Below, in pieces: positions 1,741 through 4,485 of a stretch of DNA of 4,485 nt. Positions within the stretch are counted from its first letter, which is position 1, and each line of letters begins with the position of its first letter. This DNA comes from a virus. Lineage: Duplodnaviria > Heunggongvirae > Uroviricota > Caudoviricetes. The position numbers were made by a program, and so were the translations under genes. Location of the stretch: the IMG/VR virus record IMGVR_UViG_2563366972_000007. One strand, written 5' to 3'. The notes beneath the pieces are model-generated. The model worked only from the letters and a program-made list of their open reading frames with translations. It made no database searches and had not been told where the DNA came from.

Positions 1741-3546
1741 ATGTCTGTATTAATTTCTGGTGTGCTGACTGATGGCGCAGGACTCCCCATGTCCGGATAC
1801 CATATTATTCTGAAAGCCCGGCAGAATACATCTGCAGTGGTCATGAGAACGGTGGCTACAGTGGTGACAGGGCCGACGGGAGAATATGCTTTTGAAGCAC
1901 AGACCGGAAGATATGATGTTTATCTTCGGTCGTGTATTGAAAGAGAATATTGTGTCGGTGATATTTCGGTTTACGACGACTCCAGGTCCGGCACGCTGAA
2001 CGACTTTCTGACTGCCCTTGATGAAGGCGATTTAAAGCCGGATGTAGTGAAACGCTTTGAGGAAATGGTGGCGCAGGCGCAGCAGAGCGCGAAAGCGGCA
2101 GCGGAAAGCGAACGACAGGCCTGGCAACATGTCGCTGATGCGCAACAAATTAAGAGCGACTGCGAGACGCTGGCGGATAACGTACAGCAGAACGCAGAAG
2201 CCGTTGCTGAAGATAAAAAGCACGTGGCACAGCTGTCTTCGCAGGTTGAGGATACCGCCGAAGAGGTCAGGCAGGATGCTGAAGCTGCCAGAAAGGCCGC
2301 ATCCGATGCGGAGCAGGCCAGGGATGAGATTGATACCGCATTATCAGCGACACTCAAAACGGCTAACCACCTGTCAGAAATTGCGGCAGAAGGCGAAGAG
2401 GCGCAACAGGAATCCCGCGATAATCTGGGACTGAAAAGCGCCGCTACAATGGAGCCACAGAGTGATATTTATGACCGGACAGAAGGCCGACTGGCGGTTC
2501 CCGGCATGTTCGGATTCGGGAAAATATTTTCCTATGACGACAGGACAGAGTTTGAAACAGAGGCTGATTTTCTACTGTGGGTAAAAAGGGCAAACCCCGG
2601 ACGCTATGCCGTTTATGCACGTACAAATGTGGTAATACAGGGCGTGCTGCTCAGTGGTACTGTTGACATTATCTGGCCAGAATATCAGCACAATCCCAGT
2701 CCGGTATATATACCTAAAATCATTATTTTCTATGGCATTAACGGCCATGTTTATTACAACCGTTACTGGACTGCCAGTGGTGGTTATCTGGTTGGCTGGG
2801 AGAACCTGAAGGTCAACGAGGCTTCACTCAGGGCACTGATTGAAACCCGCGCGCCACTAAACAGCCCGGCACTGACCGGAACGCCGACAGCGCCAACACC
2901 GCCAGATGATGCAGCAGGCACAGAAATAGCTAATGCGGCGTTTGTCCGCAAACTGCTCGCTGCACTGGTGGATTCATCTCCCGAAGCCCTTGACACGCTG
3001 AACGAACTGGCGGCGGCGCTGGGCAATGACCCGAACTTTGCGACAACCGTCACTAACGCGCTGGCGGGTAAACAACCACTCAGTGATGTGTTAACGGCAC
3101 TCAGCAACCTGACACAACGTGCTGACACGCTTCCGTACTTTAACACAGATGAATACGTCTCCCTTGCGCCCCTGTCAGAAAAGGGACGCTCACTGCTGGC
3201 GCAGGAAACGCCGGAAGCCATGCGAACAGTACTGGAGCTGAAAAGCGCCGCCACAATGGAGCCACAGAGTGATATTTATGACCGGACAGAAGGCCGACTG
3301 GCGATACCGGGGACACTTGGTTTTGGGGAAATTTTTCATATTAATGACAGGATTAGCTTTGACACCAGAGCCGAATTTGATACTTGGATAAGAGGCGCAA
3401 AACCGGGGCGTTATCTGGTTTATGCAAACCCCGGCATAGTGATACCAAAAGTGCTATTCAGTGGAATTCTTGAAATTATCTGGGCTTCAGCTTTAACTAC
3501 TACAACTAACGGCGTAAACAAGATTTATTTTTTTTTACAGTGTTAA
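1741..3546 (+). CDS. stf: Side tail fibre protein, lambda Stf-like N-terminal domain, Ala/Glu/Gln-rich coiled-coil shaft, conserved fibre motif, two receptor-binding-type modules; as encoded it stops prematurely at TAA 3544..3546 inside the second module
   Basis: Seen: 601-codon ORF, AGGA at 1730..1733 sits 7 nt before ATG 1741. From memory: the N-terminus (MSVLISGVLTDGAGLPMSGYHIILKARQNTSAVV..ISVYDDSRSGTLNDFLTAL) aligns with lambda Stf (MAVKISGVLKDGTGKPVQNCTIQLKARRNSTTVV..ITVYEDSQPGTLNDFLCAM). The central block APLNSPALTGTPTAP..EALDTLNELAAALGNDPNFATTVTNALAGKQP matches the conserved Stf/fibre motif APLDSPALTGTPTAP..DALNTLNELAAALGNDPDFATTMTNALAGKQP. Confidence 0.85.
   Translation: MSVLISGVLTDGAGLPMSGYHIILKARQNTSAVVMRTVATVVTGPTGEYAFEAQTGRYDVYLRSCIEREYCVGDISVYDDSRSGTLNDFLTALDEGDLKPDVVKRFEEMVAQAQQSAKAAAESERQAWQHVADAQQIKSDCETLADNVQQNAEAVAEDKKHVAQLSSQVEDTAEEVRQDAEAARKAASDAEQARDEIDTALSATLKTANHLSEIAAEGEEAQQESRDNLGLKSAATMEPQSDIYDRTEGRLAVPGMFGFGKIFSYDDRTEFETEADFLLWVKRANPGRYAVYARTNVVIQGVLLSGTVDIIWPEYQHNPSPVYIPKIIIFYGINGHVYYNRYWTASGGYLVGWENLKVNEASLRALIETRAPLNSPALTGTPTAPTPPDDAAGTEIANAAFVRKLLAALVDSSPEALDTLNELAAALGNDPNFATTVTNALAGKQPLSDVLTALSNLTQRADTLPYFNTDEYVSLAPLSEKGRSLLAQETPEAMRTVLELKSAATMEPQSDIYDRTEGRLAIPGTLGFGEIFHINDRISFDTRAEFDTWIRGAKPGRYLVYANPGIVIPKVLFSGILEIIWASALTTTTNGVNKIYFFLQC
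2431..2496 (+). repeat. Direct repeat copy 1 (66 nt) opening the first receptor-binding-type module; encodes LKSAATMEPQSDIYDRTEGRLA
   Basis: Seen: identical to 3238..3303 at 65 of 66 positions (t at 2445 versus c at 3252); sequence diverges sharply from position 67. Confidence 0.9.
3238..3303 (+). repeat. Direct repeat copy 2 (66 nt) opening the second receptor-binding-type module
   Basis: Seen: 65/66 identity to 2431..2496, same reading frame, 807 nt (269 codons) downstream. Confidence 0.9.
3528..3536 (+). other. T9 homopolymer at the frame-change point of the fibre gene (candidate slippage or phase-variation tract, or indel/sequencing error)
   Basis: Seen: nine consecutive T at 3528..3536. 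It lies inside the 29-nt interval (3518..3546) where frames +1 and +2 are both open. Reading the tract as T8 gives ..NKIYFFYSVNGAVYY.., which matches module 1 (KIIIFYGINGHVYY). Confidence 0.8.
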
Positions 3547-3631
3547 TGGTGCGGTTTATTACGCCCGTGGCACTTCTGGTGCCCCGGCATGGGAACTCTG
3601 GAGACGAACAGATAAGGAATTAATTGATTTT

Positions 3632-3922
3632 TTGTCCGGTACAGTTTATTCCGGCGGGCTGAATGCATCACCGGAGGCTGGCGGTATTGTTCAGGCAGCA
3701 TTTCGTTATCAGGATAAGCCCGGAGGATACACCCTGAGGCGAGGTGATGCTTTAAGTGGTTCACTTCTGAAGCCATATATAATTACAGTCGATGAAAGTG
3801 GCGAACAGACTCTTCATATTAAAGAGGAACATACGTTTCCCGGATATTACTGGAGTCTGACCTCCTATCCGTGGCTGAAAACGAGTGATTATATTCTGGG
3901 AATATTTATAAGGTATCGTTAA
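3632..3922 (+). CDS. Distal (C-terminal) part of the tail fibre, displaced into frame +2; not an independent gene
   Basis: Seen: frame +2 is open from 3518 to TAA 3920..3922 with no in-frame ATG (the ORF-track start at 3632 is TTG). Its translation from 3518 (FIFFYSVNGAVYYARGTSGAPAWELW..) is homologous to the continuation of the first fibre module in frame +1 (IIIFYGINGHVYYNRYWTASGGYLVGWENL..), so it is the natural continuation of the fibre past the T9 tract. Confidence 0.7.
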   Translation: MSGTVYSGGLNASPEAGGIVQAAFRYQDKPGGYTLRRGDALSGSLLKPYIITVDESGEQTLHIKEEHTFPGYYWSLTSYPWLKTSDYILGIFIRYR

Positions 3923-4485
3923 TGAACATTACAGATATAAAAAATCCTGTCAGCCTTGAACACGGGGCGATAAATTGCGAAATATTATTTGACGATATGG
4001 AGGAATATGTTCCCTATACCGCGACACCGACAGACAGCGATAAAACGGGGAAGCAGGTATGGCAGGAGCTACAAAGCGGTAAATGGGGTGAAATCGCCCC
4101 GTTCATCGTCACGCCGGAACTTATTTCGGCAGCGAAGAATGCCAAAAAGCGGGAAATTGAGGTGTGGCGTACAGAGCAGGAAGCGCAGCCGTTCACGTTC
4201 GAATGGAACGGTCATACCTGGAATGGTGGTCCTGACTCGATGGCGCGGCTTTATCCGGCAGTAATAGCATCAAAGTCTGACACAGCGCGAAAATCCATGA
4301 TATGGGGTAATGCGGAAAACCAGCAGGTGAAACTGTCTATGCAGAAACTGGATGAACTGCTTACTGCAATGGTTCAGGCACAGGTCGATCGCAATGATGA
4401 GATTTATCAGCGTCAGCGCGAGATGAAAGAAGCGTTAAATTCACTGGAGGATTTGAAGTCGATTAGGGATTTCAGGCTGGAGTAA
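3922..4485 (+). CDS. Putative tail fibre assembly/chaperone protein; family not recognised
   Basis: Seen: 187-codon ORF whose ATG (3922..3924) overlaps the fibre-frame stop TAA (3920..3922) in a TAATG junction, with AAGG at 3910..3913. The position directly after a fibre gene is where Tfa-type chaperones sit. I do not see the canonical Tfa C-terminal motif, so the function is inferred from context only. Confidence 0.45.
   Translation: MNITDIKNPVSLEHGAINCEILFDDMEEYVPYTATPTDSDKTGKQVWQELQSGKWGEIAPFIVTPELISAAKNAKKREIEVWRTEQEAQPFTFEWNGHTWNGGPDSMARLYPAVIASKSDTARKSMIWGNAENQQVKLSMQKLDELLTAMVQAQVDRNDEIYQRQREMKEALNSLEDLKSIRDFRLE

Follow-up and report, generated by a model that had tools for sequence, protein, structure and literature searches.

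We analysed a stretch of DNA of 4,485 nucleotides (nt), here called the window, from the tailed-phage record IMGVR_UViG_2563366972_000007 (Caudoviricetes), and in particular the open reading frame (ORF) that closes it, at 3922..4485 on the plus strand, directly behind a tail fibre gene. The window is identical to the first 4485 bases of the Escherichia coli contig KB733035.1 (GCA_000352305.1) and covers the right-hand end of a prophage whose tail is contractile. The product of the ORF, 187 amino acids (aa) long and hereafter ORF187, was assigned by its match to DUF4376 (PF14301) and to PHROG 1141 as a DUF4376-family protein and putative intermolecular chaperone of the upstream fibre. A Pfam scan of the protein, run at E<=1, gave DUF4376 with 54.4 bits against a gathering threshold of 25 bits (E 1.9e-14, aa 70-175) and as its second match DUF6291, which was sub-threshold, while PHROG 1141 was matched along the full length of the protein at E 8e-83. 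Searches of NCBIfam and of the PDB sequences with the same protein returned no match. The NCBI entry identical to ORF187 (P0001) is named "DUF4376 domain-containing protein [Escherichia coli]". Given that ORF187 has 1785 homologues at E<=1e-3 in a large protein collection, and that the identical protein is present on 8 contigs, we concluded that it is a real gene and not a chance ORF. The matching representatives of clusters at 50% identity numbered 307, most of them shorter than 250 aa. Homologues include L57 of phiP27 (71% identity), the ORFs of Rac-SA53 and SerU-LTIIb (72%), gp77 of Av-05 (37%) and ORF-191 of the P-Eib prophages (about 35%), and the labels carried by the relatives are inconsistent, ranging from tail fiber protein through hypothetical protein to tail fiber assembly protein. 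With profile matches of this quality we are confident that ORF187 belongs to DUF4376; judged by its sequence, it is an ordinary member of this family, a putative second and non-canonical chaperone type, and nothing new in kind.

The initial annotation had held that this ORF does not look like a canonical tail fibre assembly (Tfa) protein, and the searches bear this out. The Pfam scan (E<=1) gave no match to Caudo_TAP (PF02413). ORF187 has no canonical C-terminal motif, and hhalign comparison with Mu U and phiP27 L55 found no similarity in its C-terminal part; each of these two proteins, and Mu U' as well, matched Caudo_TAP as a positive control. A published statement that Mu U contains DUF4376 (PMC7882524) was not reproduced; Mu U and U' (L100 2976-4065) match only Caudo_TAP. 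Canonical Tfa proteins (lambda Tfa, Mu U/TfaMu and P2 G, all Caudo_TAP) have the gene slot and a similar size in common with ORF187, as well as a two-module logic in which a variable fibre-binding N-domain is followed by a conserved helical C-terminal module. TfaMu and Pam3 gp25 are built in this way, of a fibre-binding N-domain and a trimerising helical C-domain (PMC9608196). In ORF187, however, the place of the canonical C-terminal motif is taken by a DUF4376 module of ~125 aa with no detectable similarity to it. A Peptidase_S74-type chaperone fused to the fibre was considered and rejected, as ORF187 is a separate protein with its own start after the fibre stop and gave no match to Peptidase_S74 in the Pfam scan. 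The C-terminal intramolecular chaperones of this type in T5 pb1 and K1F endosialidase have a helical core and hairpin 'tentacles' that have been likened to DUF4376 chaperones (PMC10579305).

The putative client of ORF187 is an Stf-like tail fibre with a phage_tail_N N-terminus (PF08400, E 4e-53; PHROG 2636), encoded at 1741..3922 on the plus strand. The ATG of ORF187 (3922-3924) and the TAA of the upstream frame (3920-3922) have one base in common (TAATG), and an AAGG at 3910-3913 lies 8 nt 5' of the ATG; read from the sequence, positions 3910..3924 (plus strand) form a candidate site of translational coupling, in agreement with the fibre-adjacent position and coupling described in the initial annotation. 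In the window a +1 frameshift divides the fibre gene between two frames, 1741-3546 and 3632-3922; alignment with two assemblies (L003, L006) placed this frameshift at a homopolymer of nine T (T9; 3528..3536, plus strand) where both assemblies have T8. An intact fibre of 726 aa with the same terminal TAATG is present in four other assemblies with an identical downstream gene (L003-L006), so that the earlier premise of a fibre in need of repair was sound. The extra T may be a sequencing error, or it may be real, either as the mark of a pseudogene or as part of a slippage-prone tract by which the fibre is turned off.

The order of the two genes is kept well beyond the window. Of 97 related loci, 79 have an open frame, 400 aa or longer, whose end falls -1 to +14 nt from the DUF4376 start, and in most related loci the fibre stop and the DUF4376 start either overlap as they do here (-1) or are separated by 6-14 nt. 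In every annotated relative opened (phiP27, P-EibA and Av-05) the DUF4376 gene lies 3' of a fibre gene: L56 (phage_tail_N) is followed by L57 in phiP27, a myovirus-tailed prophage, an ORF-401-like gene (phage_tail_N) by ORF-191A in the lambdoid P-EibA, and gp76 by gp77 in the lytic phage Av-05. The slot of ORF-191A is presumably the place that tfa takes after stf on the lambda map. Two fibre systems are present both in phiP27 (L001) and in a prophage of E. coli STEC005 (L099 11492-13841 and 19797-22657), one made up of a P2-type H fibre and its Caudo_TAP gene or pair of genes, the other of an Stf-like fibre with a DUF4376 gene, behind gpD and right where the prophage ends. The pairing of H fibre with Caudo_TAP and of Stf-like fibre with DUF4376 therefore indicates a separate kind of helper for each fibre. 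Location at the prophage end could also point to a cargo gene (moron) unrelated to the fibre, for example one with a lysogenic-conversion or exclusion function: ORF187 is the last prophage gene and adjoins host uspF-ompN-ydbK, and in the P-Eib phages the DUF4376 gene precedes the eib virulence genes. Yet ORF187 and the fibre stop codon are coupled, the two genes stay paired in the lytic phages Av-05 and V22, in which they lie inside the tail module, and DUF4376 proteins have swapped domains with bona fide Tfa proteins (described below), and for these reasons we regard a moron as most improbable.

To describe the protein itself, an AlphaFold2 model of ORF187 was built on an alignment of 56 sequences (predicted local distance difference test, pLDDT, 94.3; predicted template modelling score, pTM, 0.73). 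The model divides into an N-terminal beta/alpha domain (aa 1-62; 3922..4107, plus strand), with strands at 3-11, 17-23 and 30-34 and a helix at 41-52, and the DUF4376 module (aa 63-187, with the Pfam match at aa 70-175; 4108..4482, plus strand), which is predicted to consist of helix 65-88, hairpin 92-101, helix 104-117, hairpin 125-139 and the long helix 140-173, followed by a further helix, 178-182, at the C-terminal end. The two peptides singled out in the initial annotation, a Trp-rich centre and a charged, probably helical C-terminus, are both present and find their place in this fold. The Trp-rich centre, FTFEWNGHTWNGGPDSMARLYP (aa 91-112; 4192..4257, plus strand), corresponds to the first DUF4376 hairpin, with strands 92-95 and 98-101, and to the start of the next helix; within it F93 and R109 are invariant and W100 and L110 nearly invariant in the 56-sequence alignment. 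The charged C-terminus, DRNDEIYQRQREMKEALNSLEDLKSIRDFRLE (aa 156-187; 4387..4482, plus strand), corresponds to the second half of the long C-terminal helix and is indeed predicted as helical (140-173 and 178-182). It carries the family signature I-x-x-RQR-x-MK, where I161, Q165, M168 and K169 are invariant and R164, R166 and L175 nearly so. Altogether 13 residues are invariant among the 56 homologues (W82, R83, E87, F93, R109, W128, N133, L143, L146, I161, Q165, M168 and K169), which reach down to about 25% identity, and all 13 columns lie inside the DUF4376 module. ORF187 conforms to the DUF4376 signature (WR..QE, F, RL, W.DA.N..V, L..L, I..RQR.MK) at 13/13 invariant columns and departs from it at one nearly invariant column, having N130 where the others have D. 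A structure search of BFVD returned 36 matches at E<1e-3, and among the matches listed by name the best were for the most part DUF4376 proteins from podo-, sipho- and myoviruses and from a crAss-like phage; the best solved-structure matches of the DUF4376 cassette were prefoldin subunits.

Distant members of DUF4376 are published fibre chaperones, which supports the initial suggestion of a different chaperone type (PMC7289586, PMC10579305, PMC7882524). A functional fibre of the Alteromonas phage V22 depends on the DUF4376 protein gp27, and gp27 and the mature fibre come apart on size-exclusion chromatography (SEC; gel filtration) (PMC7289586). The related gp9 of A5 binds its fibre more stably, yet is dispensable for function, and its authors modelled a 3:3 complex with a sheet of the fibre head that is continued by three chaperone strands (PMC10579305). 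The function of the H fibre of Campylobacter CJIE1 also depends on a downstream DUF4376 gene (PMC7882524). Alignment of V22 gp27 with the 56-sequence family profile by hhalign gave a probability of 95% and an E of 3.8e-8 over 113 columns, a match that spans the whole DUF4376 module (aa 77-189 of gp27); gp27 itself matched PF14301 at E 3.2e-21 (1.9e-14 for ORF187), and BLASTP aligned it with ORF187 at 24% identity (E 2e-6). Like ORF187, gp27 (195 aa, compared with 187 aa) and A5 gp9, both described by Gonzalez-Serrano et al. (2020, 2023), are encoded directly after their own fibre genes and combine three N-terminal strands with a helical body and beta-hairpins, the ORF187 model having been compared with their published description. 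The likeness has its bounds, as only about 24% of residues are identical between gp27 and ORF187, and the client is an enterobacterial Stf-like fibre (phage_tail_N) for ORF187 but an Alteromonas knob fibre for V22 and A5. These relatives also bear on a second role, in which ORF187 might help folding but would act mainly on the fibre tip of released virions, as a transient cap or retained tip protein that keeps debris or lysed cells away from the receptor-binding site, or that adds a receptor contact as proposed for TfaMu. A transient 'cap' was suggested for the A5 and V22 homologues because A5 gp9 binds the fibre stably and is nevertheless not needed (PMC10579305), and relatives of ORF187 are labelled 'tail fiber protein' in PHROG and GenBank. 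However, V22 gp27 leaves the mature fibre on SEC, and the labels are annotations and not virion proteomics; we consider it unlikely that the main role of ORF187 is at the tip of the released virion.

The relation of each part of the protein to the fibre was analysed in 70 non-identical fibre/partner pairs, by comparing the last 120 residues of the fibre with the first 62 aligned residues of the partner and with the rest of the partner. Identity of the N-domain correlated with that of the fibre tip at a Spearman coefficient of 0.66, as compared with 0.39 for the DUF4376 part, and when the other part was controlled for, the partial correlation was 0.58 for the N-domain and 0.03 for the DUF4376 part. 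Grouping by type gave a similar picture, with an adjusted Rand index against fibre-tip types of 0.85-0.90 for the N-domain and 0.08-0.17 for the DUF4376 part. The tip and N-domain type of the window are unique in this sample, and the direct homologues phiP27 L57, P-Eib ORF-191, the Rac-SA53 and SerU ORFs and Av-05 gp77, each encoded after a fibre gene, differ from ORF187 in the types of both N-domain and fibre tip. Adjacency on the DNA is a confounder of the covariation between tip and N-domain; the DUF4376 codons lie only about 190 nt further from the fibre, and the difference between the two parts therefore implies that recombination has a sharp boundary where the two domains meet. These results suggest that the N-domain (aa 1-62) is a fibre-specific adaptor; the DUF4376 module (aa 63-187) would be an oligomerisation or assembly cassette.

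The same comparison bears on whether ORF187 could be a distal adhesin, that is, the receptor-binding tip on the fibre, like gp38 of T2/S16-type phages. Gene position is the same and size similar in gp38-type adhesins, and the N-domain does vary between phages. Yet the larger part of ORF187 is conserved and helical, keeping its 13 invariant residues in homologues of about 25% identity, the variable part follows the fibre tip with no independent variation, and Pfam gave DUF4376 and one sub-threshold match only. With most of the protein conserved and the rest varying in step with the fibre, a gp38-like adhesin appears very unlikely. Of the possibilities left by the initial annotation, a divergent or different chaperone has thus held up, whereas an accessory fibre or adhesin component has become less likely, the DUF4376 part being conserved and not tracking the tip.

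Protein comparisons further point to natural chimeras that exchange the DUF4376 and Caudo_TAP C-terminal modules behind shared N-domains, in both directions. P0359 and P0381 have an N-domain of the window type (36-38% identity; E 2e-16 and 4e-16) and a Caudo_TAP C-terminal half with the canonical motif ...LQDAVELNMATEDEK..WKKYRVLL.R. In the opposite direction, P0166, a protein of 223 aa found on 273 contigs in a short-tailed prophage context (L101 5001-5672), combines DUF4376 with a preceding TfaMu-like N-domain that is 42% identical to residues 2-110 of Mu U (E 1e-24). Given that the two modules occupy the same place in natural chimeras, the simplest reading is that DUF4376 does the same job as the Tfa C-domain. 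BLASTP found no similarity between the fibre upstream of P0166 and Mu S, and we therefore make no claim that the type of N-domain predicts the fibre family at this locus. A further protein, P0256, joins a window-type N-domain to the FDX-ACB domain of phenylalanyl-tRNA synthetase and probably reflects an error of gene calling or assembly at the edge of a prophage.

Together, the data favour, with a probability that we put at roughly three in four, a model in which ORF187 is a coupled, fibre-specific assembly chaperone whose N-domain docks on the fibre tip and whose DUF4376 module oligomerises, nucleating trimerisation. ORF187 would be translated by coupling to the upstream Stf-like fibre gene, its N-terminal beta/alpha domain of ~60 residues would recognise the C-terminal tip of the cognate fibre, and the DUF4376 module, with its helical body and two beta-hairpins, would oligomerise and bring three fibre chains into register. 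Trimerisation of the fibre would then start at the tip, a role equal to that of the C-terminal helical module in canonical Tfa. Family membership, gene position, predicted fold, co-segregation of N-domain and fibre tip, and the module swaps come from the present analysis; chaperone activity is suggested by analogy with distant relatives at about 24% identity, and we infer which domain of ORF187 contacts the fibre and that a trimer is formed. We propose more tentatively, and with considerable doubt, that DUF4376 and the Tfa C-terminal helical module are unrelated, interchangeable oligomerisation cassettes on fibre-specific adaptors, and that DUF4376 may also serve as a removable tip cap modulating adsorption of E. 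coli prophage virions.

DUF4376 already had its place in Pfam, some of its members are chaperones described in the literature, and a protein identical to ORF187 stood in NCBI under a DUF4376 label. A confident profile match to a characterised fibre-chaperone family, which the initial annotation had named as the result that would count against it, was obtained for DUF4376 and not for Caudo_TAP, and this takes away most of the novelty. A search of the literature on PF14301/IPR025484 and on engineering of side-tail-fibre chaperones found no work on the enterobacterial subfamily.

The remainder of the window carries, upstream of the fibre gene, the genes for gpU (1-432), tail protein X (407-625) and gpD (616-1716). 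The gpU gene is truncated, with 143 of 162 aa present, because the window begins at the contig end. The fibre gene contains an internal direct repeat (2425-2619 and 3232-3426; 195 nt, 74% identity, 807 nt apart). Of the C-terminal module, which is single in phiP27 L56, the window fibre has two copies, the first partial and the second full, and this is reminiscent of the knob duplication reported for the A5 fibre. At the other end, the prophage stops within about 540 nt 3' of the DUF4376 gene, where it adjoins host uspF-ompN-ydbK (L007 4486-5460), and a scan for promoters and terminators around and 3' of ORF187 found nothing above the shuffled expectation.

The assignment explains how a fibre-adjacent gene can be devoid of the Tfa motif, in that another, published chaperone module would be in use. 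For those expressing or re-engineering the Stf-like fibres of E. coli prophages, such as phiP27-like, P-Eib-like, Rac-site and Stx phages, it means that the cognate DUF4376 gene should be co-expressed, and covariation and chimeras together suggest that the part that needs to match the fibre tip is the first ~60 residues. Databases that label members of this family 'tail fiber protein' or 'hypothetical' could use the more informative 'putative tail fibre chaperone'. The modular swaps and the covariation offer a useful and testable refinement, and if the reading of interchangeable cassettes is true, retargeting of a fibre would need only a matched adaptor of ~60 residues, with either cassette behind it.
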